Shown piece by piece: positions 3,754-17,014 of a DNA stretch of 64,000 nt (the stretch's first letter is position 1; the number at the start of each line of letters is the position of its first letter). The stretch covers positions 138,250 through 202,249 of the forward strand of contig PCXL01000011.1 of the NCBI GenBank assembly GCA_002787695.1, written 5' to 3'. This stretch comes from Candidatus Zambryskibacteria bacterium CG10_big_fil_rev_8_21_14_0_10_42_12. Its GTDB lineage: Bacteria > Patescibacteriota > Minisyncoccia > Phycocordibacterales > 1-14-0-10-42-12. Made by a program: the position numbers and the translations under genes. The notes under the pieces are model-generated. The model was not told where the DNA came from and searched no databases. It saw nothing but the letters and a program-made list of their open reading frames with translations.

Positions 3754-4485
3754 ATGGTTCACGAAAAATTCACCGGCCATTTACACCCTGTGACGCATAT
3801 ATCGAGACGCATTGTTGGTATTTTGATGGATCTTGGCTTTGAGGTGGCATTAGGACCGGAACTTGAAGAAGATCACTACAATTTTAAGGCACTTAATTTC
3901 CCTGATGATCATCCAGCAAGAGACATGCAGGACACATTTTGGCTTAAAGATTTTCCGGGGCGCCTGTTGCGAACACAGACGTCAAACGTACAGGTGAGGT
4001 ATATGGAGGGTCACGAGCCGCCACTTAAAATAGTTGTTCCAGGTAAGGTCTTTCGTAATGAAGCAACAGATGCAACACATGAGATGCAGTTTCATCAGAT
4101 AGAAGGGTTGGTTGTAGGGAAAGATATTTCACTAGCAAATTTAAAATTTACCCTCGACGCATTCATTAAAAAAATGTTTGGCGAAGATGTGGAAACTCGT
4201 TTTCGTCCCGGTTACTTTCCGTTTGTGGAGCCTGGTATCGAAGTCGACATGAAGCGACCAGAGAAAGGTAACTCAAAAAAAAGTAATGAATGGATTGAAA
4301 TACTCGGGGCAGGCATGGTGCATCCAAATGTTTTGGAAAACGCTGGGGTTGATCCAAAGATATGGCAAGGATTTGCCTTTGGTGTTGGAGTAGATCGAAT
4401 AGCTATGATGAAATTTGGTCTCTCAGATGTGAGAGATTTGTATAGTGGTGATCTGCGTGTTGTTAATCAATTTCCGGGAATATGA
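3754..4485 (+). CDS. pheS: Phenylalanine--tRNA ligase alpha subunit (catalytic core only, 243 aa)
   Basis: Class II motifs FPDDHPARDMQDTFW, GKVFRNEATDATHEMQFHQIEG and GAGMVHPNVL...GFAFGVGVDRIAMM. Overlaps pheT at ATGA. Confidence 0.9.
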   Translation: MVHEKFTGHLHPVTHISRRIVGILMDLGFEVALGPELEEDHYNFKALNFPDDHPARDMQDTFWLKDFPGRLLRTQTSNVQVRYMEGHEPPLKIVVPGKVFRNEATDATHEMQFHQIEGLVVGKDISLANLKFTLDAFIKKMFGEDVETRFRPGYFPFVEPGIEVDMKRPEKGNSKKSNEWIEILGAGMVHPNVLENAGVDPKIWQGFAFGVGVDRIAMMKFGLSDVRDLYSGDLRVVNQFPGI

Positions 4486-14200: not shown

Positions 14201-14404
14201 GACATCGAGCCCGAGGATCGGTTTAATCTCTTGTTTTTTACATTCCTGATAAAACTCTATTGCCCCGTAAAGACCTCCATTGTCTGTGAGTGCGAGTGCA
14301 GTTTGTCCATCATCTTTTGCCGCTTTTACCAAGTCCGGGATCTTTGGTAGGGCATTTAAAAGACTGTAGTGGCTATGTGTATGGAGATGTACGAATTGAG
14401 ACAT
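11225..14404 (-). CDS. dnaE: DNA polymerase III alpha subunit
   Basis: N-terminal PHP domain (HLHTHSHYSLLN), polymerase core (GLLKFDFLGLKNLT) and an OB-fold C-terminus. 1059 aa. Confidence 0.95.
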   Translation of the reverse strand: MSQFVHLHTHSHYSLLNALPKIPDLVKAAKDDGQTALALTDNGGLYGAIEFYQECKKQEIKPILGLDVYVAPRTRHDKDGKIDRGSTRLVLLAQNEKGWKNLLKLSSLSYLEGFYYKPRVDKELLAAYSEGLIAIIPSFSGEIVQILKTNDTVRAKETLEFYKKTYGENLYFEITHHPEIDMHEEHMEHIMSFAQETSVPIVAAHDVYYLKPTDRSARETLVSIGGGKTSLGGFDESEEDFSFITQKQAVKLFKKNPETLENTVKIADSCNLEIVLGQEAWKFPDLKTESGKSPDDELRDKAYAGVSWRGMELTEDLKKRIDYELEVIKTKGYSKYFLVVADILAHAKKTKILSNTRGSAAGSLVSYLVGITLVDPIELGLPFERFLNPGRPSAPDIDMDFADARRDELITYVREKYGKDNVAQIGTFGTMAARGAVRDVARALGFPYSTGDRIAKLIPMGAQGFPMTIDRAMDEVPELKEIYKKERDVHDILDMAKKIEGCARHIGVHAAGVVISPRPLTEDAAIQWDPKGEGKLITQFDMHSVGEDGVGLLKFDFLGLKNLTIMGNTLELIHKLKGVELDIDTIPLDDTKTYDMLARGETAATFQLNGDGMTRFLKELKPTNIFDINAMVALYRPGPMAFIPDYIERKHNPERVRYIDNRFKDILEQTFGILIYQDDIMLIAVHFAGYSWGDADKFRKAMGKKIPEVMMAQKEKFSKGCQEVGGLTEKQTQELWDSIETFAAYGFNKAHAASYGRIAYLTSYLKANYPVLYMTAVLTAESGDTERVAEMVAECKRMGIDVMPPAINESFSDFTVVKDEKGEDHIRFGLTTIKNFGEGISEAIIAERKRGGKFASLTDFLERVQDRNLNKKSLESLIKSGAMDEFGERGEMLENLDLLLAHNKEMQKNAGQDSLFGSLPGGNTLNLKPSEQASMEDKLSWEKELLGLYISGHPLDRIKDKLENGKVQLADLKKEGEEEQEVVVGGIIEDMREIYTKKGDKMAFIKLRDLTDTIECVAFPKTLEEYKTVLVPESVVAFKGHVSIRNDEKTLKIDKVKKL

Positions 14405-14437
14405 AAGGCGTGTAACAGAAGTATTATACTAGAGAAG

Positions 14438-15055
14438 ATGGCGAAGCCGAAAAAAACATATTTTTCATATATTGTCGGGATTGATGAAGCGGGCCGTGGC
14501 CCACTTGCGGGTCCCGTGGCGGTTGGACTTGTGTGCATTCCGGTAAATTTTAATAAAAAGCTTTTTGGAAAAGCGAAAGATTCAAAACAGCTTTCCGAAA
14601 AAATACGGGAAGAAATATTTCTTGAGACAAAGAAGCTGCATAGAGATGGCGTGCTTACGTACGCAGTATCGATGGTGCATGCAGATGTGATTGATACAAA
14701 AGGTATTACATACGCCATAAAACTATGTATCAAAAGGTGTCTTAAAAAATGTGGCGTAAGCCCAGAAGAAACAATGGTGTTGCTCGATGGGTCATTAAAA
14801 GCGCCAAGGGTATATGTACACCAAAAAACAATCATAAGAGGGGATCAGAAAGAAAAAGTGATTTCGCTTGCTTCAATTATGGCGAAAGTGACAAGAGACA
14901 GATGGATGAAGAAAGTTGCTCTCAAATATCCGGAATACGGGTTTGAAATCCATAAAGGATACGGGACCAAAATACACAGAGAGAGTATTAAAAAGAATGG
15001 TTTATCCTCTGTGCATAGAAAGAGCTTCTTGACCCGTATCGAGATAGGCCCGTGA
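14438..15055 (+). CDS. rnhB: Ribonuclease HII
   Basis: YIVGIDEAGRGPLAGPVAVGLV catalytic motif. Start placed at ATG 14438 (MAKPKK), because the ORF track start at 14369 overlaps the dnaE start. Confidence 0.9.
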   Translation: MAKPKKTYFSYIVGIDEAGRGPLAGPVAVGLVCIPVNFNKKLFGKAKDSKQLSEKIREEIFLETKKLHRDGVLTYAVSMVHADVIDTKGITYAIKLCIKRCLKKCGVSPEETMVLLDGSLKAPRVYVHQKTIIRGDQKEKVISLASIMAKVTRDRWMKKVALKYPEYGFEIHKGYGTKIHRESIKKNGLSSVHRKSFLTRIEIGP

Positions 15056-15093: not shown

Positions 15094-15345
15094 ATGGTTA
15101 TTCGAATGAGACATACCAAATCCCATACAAAAAATCGTCGATCGCATCATGCGATTAGCCGAGGTGGTGTTTCTGTGTGCCCAGAATGTGGAGCATCGAA
15201 AATGGCACACCGTGCATGTATGGCTTGTGGCTCATATCGTGGCCGTAAGGTTGTAGGTAAAAAGGAGGTTGTAAAGACAGAACCTGCAGCCAAAACAGAA
15301 CCTCAAAACAAAAAAACAAAAACAGAAGCAAAAAAGAGCAAATAA
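15094..15345 (+). CDS. rpmF: 50S ribosomal protein L32 with a lysine-rich C-terminal tail
   Basis: MRHTKSHTKNRRSHHAIS matches the L32 signature and CPECGASKMAHRACMACG is the zinc ribbon. The start may be 15106. Confidence 0.85.
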   Translation: MVIRMRHTKSHTKNRRSHHAISRGGVSVCPECGASKMAHRACMACGSYRGRKVVGKKEVVKTEPAAKTEPQNKKTKTEAKKSK

Positions 15346-15411
15346 TATCCCCATTTGTTCTTTTTTGTTAATTGCCTAAAGGAGGTATACTGTTTTTGAA
15401 GACCTCTAGTT

Positions 15412-16293
15412 ATGGCAAACAGGCACCTTGGAAGATCGATAGCACTACAAACTCTTTTTGAGTGGGATTTCCGTAATCTCTCAAAATCAGATCTGGACTC
15501 AGTTATCAAACGAAACATTGAAGAATTTGCCCCTGGGGCAAGCGACGCTTCGTTTGTTGAGAATCTGGTCAATAGTGTTGTTGAAAAACAAATTGATCTG
15601 GATGCTATTGTGACTAAGGCTGCTCCTGAGTGGCCAATTGATAAGATTTCAAATATCGATCGCAACGTCTTGCGCATCGGTCTTTACGAACTTCTCTTTG
15701 CCCCACATGACGAGGTGCCTCCTAAGGTTGCTATCAATGAAGCTATCGAGATCGCTAAATCATTTGGAGGCGAAACCTCAAGCCGTTTTGTAAACGGTGT
15801 ACTCGGTGCGGTATATAAGGAGATGGGGGAGCCAGGCAAAGATGATGGTCCCAAGGAAAAGAGGGCGCCTATCAAAGAAGATCTTGTGGGCGCAGTGGTG
15901 TACGCCAAAGACAAGGGGGAAATAAAAATTGCTCTCGTACATGATATTTTTGGCCACTGGACACTGACGAAAGGTCATTTGCCAGAAGGTGTAACCGATC
16001 TTAAAAAAGGACTTGTGCAAGCGGTACAAGATGAGCTCGGCATTGATGTTTCTGTAAAGCAGGAAATAGGGGAAAACGAGTATGGTACGTATGATCCAGA
16101 CAAGGGGAAACTAAAAAAACACGTGACCTATTTCTTGGCCGAGACTACATTTAAAAAATTGTCTCTTAAGGAAAGTGGCGGACTAGACAACGCAAAATGG
16201 TTTCCGCTTGAAGGTATTGCAGAGCTCAATTTTTACGATGACATGATGCCGATTGTTACAAAAGCAATCGAGGAACTTGCAAAAGAAGATTAA
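15412..16293 (+). CDS. nusB: NusB antitermination factor fused to a C-terminal Nudix-fold domain with a degenerate Nudix box
   Basis: The N-terminal 150 aa are NusB-like (RSIALQTLFEWDF, RNVLRIGLYELLF, PKVAINEAIEIAKSFGGE). The C-terminal 140 aa read GAVVYAKDKGEIKIALVHDIFGHWTLTKGHLPEGVTDLKKGLVQAVQDELGI...HVTYFLAE, which is Nudix-fold-like, but the box REx2EE is replaced by QAVQDE. Confidence 0.75.
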   Translation: MANRHLGRSIALQTLFEWDFRNLSKSDLDSVIKRNIEEFAPGASDASFVENLVNSVVEKQIDLDAIVTKAAPEWPIDKISNIDRNVLRIGLYELLFAPHDEVPPKVAINEAIEIAKSFGGETSSRFVNGVLGAVYKEMGEPGKDDGPKEKRAPIKEDLVGAVVYAKDKGEIKIALVHDIFGHWTLTKGHLPEGVTDLKKGLVQAVQDELGIDVSVKQEIGENEYGTYDPDKGKLKKHVTYFLAETTFKKLSLKESGGLDNAKWFPLEGIAELNFYDDMMPIVTKAIEELAKED

Positions 16294-16309: not shown

Positions 16310-17014
16310 ATGTTTGATACTAATGCATGTGAAGAAAGAATAGGGGTGACATTCAAAGACAAGAGTATTTTAGAGCAAGCATTTACACACCGTTCATATT
16401 TGAATGAAAACAAAGATACGGGGCGCGAACACAACGAACGTCTCGAGTTTTTAGGGGACGCGGTTTTAGAGCTTGTTATCACTCATTTTCTGTATGAGAA
16501 ATATCCAGATAAAAATGAGGGTGAGCTTACTGCATATCGTAGTGCACTCGTAAAAACAGAAACACTTTCGAGCGTTTCTGAGAGTCTTGGGTTTAATGAC
16601 TTCCTCTTACTCTCTCGTGGTGAAGCAAAGGATACGGGGCGAGCGCGACAATATATTTTGGCGAATACGTTTGAGTCGGTTGTCGGGGCTATATATCTCG
16701 ATCAAGGATATGATACGGCAAAGCAGTTTATTTATGACCACATTACCAACTTGATCGATGCGATTTTGAAGGAGGGAACGTGGATTGATGCCAAGAGTCG
16801 TTTTCAAGAGAAGTCACAAGAAGTTGTGGGAACGACACCTTCATACAGAACGGTAAAAGAGGAAGGGCCAGATCATGACAAGCATTTCACCGTAGGTGTA
16901 TTTCTAGGAAAAGAAAAAGTTGCCGAGGGTTCTGGTAAATCAAAACAAGATGCGGAACAGGCTGCCGCTAAAGCTGCGATGGATGCGAAGGGATGGGAAT
17001 ATGATAGGTTGTAG
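16310..17014 (+). CDS. rnc: Ribonuclease III
   Basis: ERLEFLGDAVLELVITHFLY catalytic signature plus a C-terminal dsRBD (GPDHDKHFTVGVFLG...GSGKSKQDAEQAAAKAA). Confidence 0.9.
   Translation: MFDTNACEERIGVTFKDKSILEQAFTHRSYLNENKDTGREHNERLEFLGDAVLELVITHFLYEKYPDKNEGELTAYRSALVKTETLSSVSESLGFNDFLLLSRGEAKDTGRARQYILANTFESVVGAIYLDQGYDTAKQFIYDHITNLIDAILKEGTWIDAKSRFQEKSQEVVGTTPSYRTVKEEGPDHDKHFTVGVFLGKEKVAEGSGKSKQDAEQAAAKAAMDAKGWEYDRL

Follow-up and report, generated by a model that had tools for sequence, protein, structure and literature searches.

The stretch analysed here is a 64-kb piece of a Candidatus Zambryskibacteria genome (contig PCXL01000011.1), referred to below as the window. It carries a gene in which the transcription antitermination factor NusB is joined to a Nudix-fold domain. 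This protein, called the query below, is encoded by one uninterrupted open reading frame (ORF), and no other NusB or Nudix gene was found in the 64-kb window. The gene and its parts are as follows.

15412..16293, + strand: nusB-Nudix fusion gene, a single ATG-to-TAA ORF of 293 amino acids plus stop, with no internal stop codon
15412..15828, + strand: NusB domain, residues 1-139, seven helices (PF01029, TIGR01951 and model superposition)
15829..15882, + strand: linker, residues 140-157, an invariant E-P-G-K and then a Lys-rich stretch of low conservation
15883..16290, + strand: Nudix-fold domain, residues 158-293, of the NUDT2/Ap4A (diadenosine tetraphosphate) hydrolase type (PF00293, Foldseek and phmmer)
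15973..16044, + strand: degenerate Nudix box, residues 188-211, GHLPEGVTDLKKGLVQAVQDELGI, recognised by comparison with the canonical box

The N-terminal half was compared with NusB at the level of profile, structure and single residues. PF01029 (NusB) matches residues 8-136 with 119.9 bits against a gathering score of 23.1, and the NCBIfam equivalog TIGR01951 (nusB) gives 124.2 bits against a cut-off of 88.35. The sequence match of this half in the PDB is NusB 1TZT (1e-18). An AlphaFold2 model was built on 116 homologues. In this model the NusB half folds into seven helices with a predicted local distance difference test (pLDDT) mostly above 90, and Foldseek places it on the Aquifex NusB of the NusB-NusE-BoxA complex (PDB 3R2C/3R2D) with a template modelling (TM) score of 0.89, a root mean square deviation (rmsd) of 1.8 Å and a probability of 1.00. 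In the Aquifex ternary complex BoxA runs along the C-terminal helix alpha-7 of NusB; F122 stacks on U8, E81 and the backbone of G78 read U8, and S128 contacts C6 (PMC3177189). In the sequence alignment the U8 pocket is preserved, since F126 (Aquifex F122) is kept in 120 of 120 homologues and D83 (Aquifex E81) in 119 of 120. R84-N85 (Aquifex R82-N83) is invariant across the family, and S80 stands at the backbone contact in the 69-81 loop region (Aquifex G78). By profile, fold and BoxA-recognition residues the fusion protein is thus a member of the NusB family. Its NusB half looks fully functional, and pairing with S10/NusE and binding of BoxA are predicted to proceed as usual.

The two halves are joined by a linker in which E140, P141, G142 and K143 are invariant or nearly so among the homologues. 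Residues 143-150 have a pLDDT below 50 and are disordered in the model. The model as a whole consists of two well-folded domains, with a mean pLDDT of 89.5 and a predicted TM score (pTM) of 0.49. Because of the low linker pLDDT and the low pTM, the mutual orientation of the NusB and Nudix domains is not fixed.

For the C-terminal half, PF00293 (NUDIX) matches residues 159-274 with 30.0 bits against a cut-off of 21.1 (E=5.9e-7). It is the only Nudix-family model that matches the query, and no specific match to the CFIm25 (NUDIX_2) or NrtR models was obtained. The PDB sequence matches found with phmmer, at about 1e-4 to 1e-3, are the human and C. elegans Ap4A hydrolases, Chlamydia CT771 and Thermus Ndx1, all of them Ap4A/Ap6A hydrolases. 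The structural search agrees. The best match is the Aquifex Ap4A hydrolase 3I7U (TM 0.86, 2.4 Å, probability 1.00), and the Thermus Ap6A hydrolase 1VC8 reaches a TM score of 0.84; C. elegans 1KTG, Chlamydia CT771 4MPO, human NUDT2 3U53, mycobacterial MutT1/Rv2985 and the Nudix domain of NrtR are matched as well. RppH does not appear among the top 50 Foldseek matches of the model and NudC is found at rank 42 with an rmsd of 8.5 Å, so neither is the nearest relative of the domain. A first-pass annotation of the window, made from the sequence alone, had proposed a NusB domain followed by a Nudix fold in one protein. Both proposals are borne out, at a level far beyond chance: Pfam places NusB at 8-136 and NUDIX at 159-274, above the curated cut-offs, TIGR01951 agrees, the C-terminal region does model as a Nudix fold, and Foldseek gives a probability of 1.00 for either half. 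By HMM match and alpha/beta/alpha fold the domain belongs to the Nudix superfamily. The same annotation had named alarmones and NAD-capped RNA among possible ligands. Since the closest relatives are NUDT2-type Ap4A/Ap6A hydrolases and not NudC, a dinucleoside polyphosphate (ApnN) or a 5'-polyphosphate would be favoured over NAD caps.

The catalytic box was then compared with the canonical form, G-x5-E-x7-R-E-U-x-E-E-x-G-U. The query reads G188-HLPEG-V194-(T195 inserted)-DLKKGLV-Q203-A204-V-Q-D207-E208-L-G210-I. Thus the Glu of Gx5E is replaced by Val next to a one-residue insertion, the substitutions R203Q, E204A and E207D follow, and E208 is kept. One of the four box Glu residues remains, the Arg has become Gln, and in total four of the five core box residues are lost. 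The motifs quoted in the first-pass annotation are all present, with GHWTLTKGHLPEG at residues 181-193, QAVQDE at 203-208, HVTYFLAE at 237-244 and WFPLEG at 263-268, and its description of the box as degenerate is correct for this protein. Without the catalytic box that defines Nudix hydrolases, the query should not be classed as one of them. The substitutions predict that hydrolysis of Ap4A by the query is lost or strongly reduced.

In contrast to the box, the residues that hold the substrate are kept. Mapping was done by sequence alignment to solved enzymes rather than in three dimensions on the model. In the HMMER alignment K187 corresponds to K42 of human NUDT2, K236 to K89, and Y275 to F128 (C. 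elegans Y121). A structural comparison of the human and Plasmodium enzymes assigns the equivalents of K42, K89 and F128 to the P1-phosphate site and to adenine stacking (PMC4734340). Within the 80 nearest species, D178, F180, W183, T184, K187, Y224 and W263 are found in all 80, Y275 in 79, and K233 and K236 in 76. Among the divergent fusions, W183, T184, K187, Y240 and Y275 are each present in 39 of 40. The query retains every near-invariant residue of this cradle and, with K187, K236 and Y275, appears to carry the NUDT2-type substrate site.

We asked how widely the fusion occurs. The homologue set comprised the 120 best protein clusters from NCBI, JGI, ENA and Logan assemblies. All of these are full-length (about 290-305 residues), both Pfam domains are pre-annotated in 114 of them, and the named members are called transcription antitermination factor NusB of Zambryskibacteria, Paceibacterota, Parcubacteria or Patescibacteria. 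A 100% identical protein (P0001) is present in JGI, Logan and ENA assemblies on contigs of up to 191 kb. A second scan used one genome per GTDB species and gave at least 599 confirmed relatives; one of its two patterns lies within NusB, so this number is an upper-bound count of candidates for fusions. The best 80 of these were studied in detail. All of them match the query from residue 1 to about 290 within ORFs of about 290-326 residues, and they include Zambryski-, Nomura-, Kaiser-, Lloyd- and Vogelbacteria as well as a complete 644-kb Paceibacterota chromosome. A search started from the very divergent member P0242 again returned only proteins of about 295-316 residues, named Paceibacterota, Minisyncoccia, Nomurabacteria or Pacebacteria. 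The first-pass annotation had called the architecture unusual. The fusion is real, yet it is no oddity of one genome: it is the standard NusB across Paceibacteria/Minisyncoccia. In public annotation these proteins are named plain NusB even where both Pfam domains are precomputed.

A frameshift, a missed stop codon or an assembly chimera could in principle join two genes in this way. The case for such an artefact comes from one metagenomic contig (locus L086, 542-1459; GCA_013565675.1, JACCDV010735530.1), on which nusB and the Nudix gene are called as two genes. This is the sole apparent split pair. It results from one TAA, in frame, that replaces the codon of the invariant Tyr135 (context GAV*KE) in an otherwise collinear fusion, and the TAA could be a sequencing error, a pseudogene mutation or a nonsense polymorphism. 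Moreover, the same single ORF recurs in hundreds of independent assemblies and in all of the best 80 species genomes, with the junction motif E-P-G-K invariant. The chance that the fusion is artefactual, which the first-pass annotation had raised as an objection to its own proposal, is therefore negligible. A genuine two-gene state, ancestral or split, was also considered and rejected, as its sole example is this same locus (protein P0139). The stand-alone entry P0228 belongs to a cluster that holds a 294-aa member. True stand-alone relatives of the Nudix domain have unrelated surroundings: P0150 has phage- or mobile-element-like neighbours and P0237 a generic locus, while P0221 comes from a contig too short to show its context. 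On the Logan contig SRR22388351 (locus L084), P0150 is encoded at 4001-4453 with a canonical box among integrase, DNA methylase and Phage_rep_O-like genes.

Relatives of the Nudix domain were also seen in larger predicted proteins, namely P0260 (1219 aa), P0186 (577 aa), P0266 (608 aa) and P0240 (379 aa). The architectures in this group are HEPN-like/STAND NTPase/TPR followed by NusB and Nudix, a weak cold-shock-domain match followed by NusB and Nudix, Fic with Nudix, and sigma-70 region 4 with a DnaA-C helix-turn-helix and Nudix. All four proteins come from short metagenomic contigs, where run-on gene calls are possible.

Conservation was evaluated separately for the parts of the protein. Over 116 homologues the mean pairwise identity is 62% in the Nudix domain, 71% in NusB and 43% in the linker, and the Nudix domain is accordingly read from these alignments as being under purifying selection. 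The box behaves differently from the domain that contains it. Its E-R-E-E-E residues are kept in 28 of the 120 closest homologues and are fully canonical in 38 of the 80 nearest species genomes. For the deeper part of the family, 40 divergent full-length fusions were taken as representatives at 50% identity; the Glu triad is intact in 6 of them, and 4 are without any Glu. By comparison, 17 of 22 stand-alone relatives of about 140 residues have an intact triad (Fisher p = 3e-6, which is indicative only, as the representatives are phylogenetically non-independent). Among the stand-alone entries with a non-canonical box, the traceable ones (P0139, P0228) are pieces of fusions and others carry fusion-type motifs; all genuinely stand-alone relatives have a canonical box. 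Within the fusions, the Glu of the RE pair is the 13th most variable of 133 Nudix-domain positions. Neighbour-joining trees of 81 taxa, poorly resolved for so short a domain, require at least 17-20 changes between intact and non-intact boxes, compared with a mean of 27 after shuffling. From these state changes we conclude that losses of the box were many and independent. As 38 of the 80 nearest species retain it, the family is a mosaic and the dead box is clade-specific. Hence the suggestion in the first-pass annotation of a non-catalytic Nudix module fits the query, where the box is dead, but does not extend to the family.

In one sub-clade (P0242, P0222, P0274-P0279 and locus L081, 4001-4900) all catalytic Glu residues are lost, with boxes such as AAIIKDK. 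NUDIX is no longer seen by Pfam in proteins of the P0242 type; their length of about 300 residues and the gene order rpmF-fusion-rnc(-khpA) are kept. The motif GGLDD and the residues H177 and N273 are conserved specifically in fusions and absent from the stand-alone relatives. A re-wired active site that uses H177 or the GGLDD aspartates was considered and ruled out, since these residues are not conserved in the deep fusion lineages.

The genes next to the fusion were examined in the window and in the best 80 loci. The neighbouring features in the window are listed here.

15094..15345, + strand: rpmF, ribosomal protein L32 (PF01783), the upstream neighbour
15357..15365, + strand: BoxA-like site GTTCTTTTT in the rpmF-nusB spacer, at -55 of the fusion start; not above chance in the window alone
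16310..17014, + strand: rnc, RNase III (PF14622, PF00636 and dsrm), beginning 16 nt past the stop codon of the fusion

In the window, rnhB, rpmF, the fusion and rnc follow one another, and dnaE lies upstream in divergent orientation. There are 66 nt between rpmF and the fusion and 16 nt between the fusion and rnc. The core from rpmF to rnc is fixed. Upstream of the fusion, rpmF is found in 78 of 80 loci, and rnc lies downstream in 77 of 80, that is, wherever the contig allows. The stop codon of the fusion often abuts or overlaps the start of rnc. Even in the divergent locus L081 the order rpmF, fusion, rnc is kept, followed by khpA. A scan for terminator-like sites between the genes gave none before 17171, and overall neither the terminator nor the promoter scan of the window exceeded the shuffled expectation. 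From gene order and spacing, rpmF, the fusion and rnc are likely co-transcribed.

BoxA-like sites are enriched at the level of the family. G[TC]TC[TA]TT occurs within 60 nt upstream of the fusion start codon in 25 of 79 loci, an enrichment of about 10-fold. As a comparison, the same pattern was counted upstream of the neighbouring genes, where it is found before rnc in 1 of 77, before rpmF in 2 of 78 and before rnhB in 3 of 49 loci; in background windows of 60 nt its frequency is 2.8%. Most of the family sites lie at -7 to -16 of the fusion start and some abut the ATG. Several are extended to GTTCTTTAACT or GCTCTTTAATC, and the form GTTCTTTA is frequent. Several agree at 10 of 11 positions with GYTCTTTAANA, a gamma-proteobacterial BoxA consensus. 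In gamma-proteobacteria this BoxA mediates translational autoregulation of Nus-factor genes (PMC5725501). The sites suggest that nusB of this lineage may be autoregulated through BoxA as well.

Closer to the start codon, the window contains AGGAGG 26 nt upstream of the ATG (15380-15391), too far for a normal Shine-Dalgarno sequence, with a -10-like TATACT directly after it. Blocks similar to 'TATACTGTTC...' are present upstream of the fusion in loci L012 and L015. The region hints at a possible internal promoter with a very short 5' untranslated region; the consensus scan called no promoter there.

Compared with known systems, the protein differs from characterised NusB, a single-domain protein of about 130-150 residues, by its C-terminal extension of 150 residues. 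Its gene lies between rpmF and rnc, unlike the contexts in model bacteria, such as ribH-nusB in E. coli. The best fold and sequence matches of the extension are the NUDT2-type Ap4A/Ap6A hydrolases (3U53, 1KTG, Aquifex aq_158 3I7U, Thermus Ndx1 1VC8 and CT771 4MPO), with which it shares the HWTxxKG loop, the VxYxLAE strand, WxxL and the second stacking aromatic residue, along with the conserved equivalents of K42, K89 and F128. It departs from these enzymes in three ways: the query and many of its relatives have a degenerate box, the hairpin that carries the first stacking Tyr is about 5 residues longer, and the domain is fused to NusB.

CFIm25 (NUDT21) is a dimer that recognises UGUA RNA. It provides the closest functional analogy, as it has a Nudix fold without two catalytic Glu residues and binds Ap4A without hydrolysing it, within an RNA-processing complex (PMC2425470). 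However, CFIm25 is a subunit of eukaryotic pre-mRNA 3' processing and belongs to a different Nudix family in the clan list (PMC5389931), with no specific sequence relationship to the query. NrtR likewise joins a degenerate Nudix domain, there a ligand sensor, to a nucleic-acid-binding domain. Its partner is a winged-helix DNA-binding domain and its ligand ADP-ribose, whereas in the fusion the Nudix domain is paired with an RNA-binding partner and has ApnA hydrolases as its closest enzymes. By analogy, the fusion would work most like these non-catalytic Nudix regulators, in which the fold is retained under purifying selection and the catalytic residues are lost. Because there is no family-level sequence match, the likeness to CFIm25 and NrtR is one of analogy and not of membership. 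In the ribosomal RNA (rRNA) antitermination complex of E. coli, SuhB is an enzyme-fold subunit that binds RNA and protein beside NusB/E on boxA-boxC (PMC6614801). SuhB differs in having an inositol monophosphatase fold, in being a separate polypeptide and in binding the AR2 domain of NusA. The layout of Dcp2 is also similar, with an all-helical N-terminal regulatory domain followed by a Nudix domain that acts on RNA 5' ends. Dcp2 appears at Foldseek ranks 19, 28, 30 and 48 over about 250 columns with an rmsd of about 15 Å, so only the individual domains match; it is catalytic, and there is no evidence for homology of the helical domains.

Taken together, the data can be accommodated in the following model. 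The C-terminal domain would derive from a NUDT2-type Ap4A hydrolase that is now carried by the housekeeping NusB. The NusB half would pair with S10/NusE, bind BoxA on the nascent RNA and keep the leader tethered to RNA polymerase, as NusB/S10 on boxA is known to anchor the leader to the elongating polymerase, and this tethering has been proposed to help leader and trailer pair into the helix with the RNase III site (PMC10250234, PMC6614801). A flexible linker of about 15 residues would hang the Nudix domain from the end of alpha-7. BoxA positions 8 to 6 run toward the C-terminal end of this helix, which would put the Nudix domain next to the RNA, 5' of BoxA; the placement is drawn from two contacts and not from a model. 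With fold and phosphate/adenine cradle retained and hydrolysis dispensable in the family, the domain may grip a nucleoside-5'-polyphosphate next to BoxA. The likeliest target would be the 5'-terminal (p)ppN end, or a dinucleoside tetraphosphate (Np4N)-capped end, of the same leader RNA; a free ApnN-type ligand is the alternative. NUDT2 itself acts on RNA with a 5'-triphosphate (PMC8616924). Having lost four of the five core box residues, the query most likely binds without cleaving. In this way the protein could grip the transcript at a second point while it folds co-transcriptionally and is processed by RNase III, and the role of RNase III at the leader-trailer helix is counted in favour together with rnc as the invariant downstream neighbour. 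As a whole, a polyphosphate-binding module beside BoxA that likely engages the 5' end of the leader is the best explanation we can offer; it is possible, and we hold it tentatively.

Several observations weigh against this model. A perfect Nudix box survives in about half of the nearest species; hydrolysis may be important there, and binding only would apply strictly to the clade of the query and the other degenerate ones. The pTM of 0.49 gives no defined geometry between the domains. The Nudix domain is acidic, with an isoelectric point (pI) of about 5.1-5.6, like soluble Ap4A hydrolases; a basic RNA-binding surface on it was considered and, at a pI of about 5, set aside as unsupported. The equivalent of the first stacking Tyr (human Y82) is ambiguous between Y224 and Y227, on a beta-hairpin about 5 residues longer than in NUDT2, and the conserved aromatic residues could be structural instead. 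Finally, the 64-kb window holds no rRNA genes and only two transfer RNA genes, and thus offers no rRNA leader or BoxA of the lineage for comparison.

Three other explanations were weighed against the tentative model of a polyphosphate-binding module. In one, the Nudix domain would sense a free ligand (Ap4A, Ap5A, ATP or an alarmone) and modulate the engagement of NusB with S10, BoxA or RNA polymerase, so that rRNA synthesis would respond to stress or to the energy state; in NrtR, a Nudix domain that senses ADP-ribose serves a DNA-binding domain in a similar way. The conserved phosphate and adenine cradle and the acidic pI, typical of soluble small-molecule enzymes, would fit such a sensor. Likewise, the ADP-ribose-bound NrtR domain is Foldseek match number 4, and CFIm25 binds Ap4A (dissociation constant about 2.4 µM) without hydrolysis inside an RNA-processing factor (PMC2425470). 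However, with a flexible, poorly conserved linker and no predicted interdomain interface, it is not evident how an allosteric signal would be passed on, and in species with a canonical box the ligand would be destroyed by its own sensor. We consider a sensor somewhat unlikely. In another, the pseudo-Nudix domain would act as a protein-protein or RNA-scaffold module of the antitermination complex, its cradle a relic, with SuhB, an enzyme fold used as a subunit of the rRNA transcription antitermination complex (PMC6614801), as the precedent. The fusion clades without any catalytic Glu or Pfam signal that still keep length and synteny argue for this, as do GGLDD, H177 and N273, which the stand-alone relatives lack. 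Against it, the best-kept residues of the deepest fusions are the substrate-contacting Lys, Trp-Thr and Tyr of NUDT2-type enzymes (39 of 40 each), and the family-specific H177 and D259 are not conserved in deep members. A purely structural subunit thus seems unlikely.

The domain might also still be an enzyme, a tethered pyrophosphohydrolase that converts 5'-ppp or Np4N ends to 5'-p in the manner of RppH or NUDT2, or that clears Ap4A locally. Any weak activity of the query would then depend on D207 and E208. E208 is indeed invariant, position 207 is E or D in 113 of 120 close homologues, the complete E-R-E-E-E box is present in the 38 of 80 species described above, and NUDT2 dephosphorylates PPP-RNA (PMC8616924). 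On the other hand, the query is without the Gx5E Glu, the Arg and the RE Glu, and CFIm25, which lacks only two Glu residues, is already inactive (PMC2425470). Few positions of the domain vary as much as the RE Glu, and the box was lost many times while the domain was not. In addition, G257 replaces a Glu that distant stand-alone relatives have, aligned with C. elegans E103, presumably a catalytic residue of that enzyme. For the query we therefore judge retained catalysis to be very unlikely; for orthologues with a canonical box it is considerably more plausible.

A more specific form of the polyphosphate-binding model is that the NusB of Paceibacteria has acquired a reader of RNA 5' ends. With BoxA bound by NusB/S10, the pseudo-Nudix domain would grasp the first nucleotide, with its 5'-triphosphate or Np4N cap, of the nascent pre-rRNA or of mRNAs that contain BoxA, its own among them. 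In this narrow form the proposal is quite unlikely. If true, the leader would be closed into a protein-bridged loop on RNA polymerase, a previously undescribed 5'-end tethering in rRNA folding and RNase III processing. It might then substitute for SuhB in reduced genomes, and in lineages with a canonical box, decapping or dephosphorylation would come in as a further step.

Irrespective of the ligand, NusB is a core and near-universal factor of transcription and ribosome biogenesis that has been characterised only as a single-domain protein. Here, a major lineage of the candidate phyla radiation (CPR) has a nucleotide-binding domain permanently joined to it, within a fixed cluster with the genes for L32 and RNase III, and the plain name NusB in public annotation hides the extension. 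Full-text literature searches found no publication on a NusB-Nudix fusion, and a survey of the Nudix clan (PMC5389931) contains none either. An invariant cradle, a repeatedly lost box and a domain that is never lost form the signature of an enzyme turned binding module. The fusion offers a testable lead on rRNA transcription and processing in organisms that are not yet genetically tractable, and its active-looking and dead-looking orthologues form a natural series for dissecting the ligand of the domain.

A minor observation concerns the upstream end of the gene cluster. With its listed start, a GTG at 14369, the rnhB ORF would run across the start of the divergent dnaE at 14404. Pfam recognises RNase HII from rnhB residue 36 onward, and an ATG (Met24, 14438) lies ahead of this match. 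For this reason 14438 is probably the real start of rnhB, which would leave a divergent intergenic region of about 33 bp (window 14369-14440).

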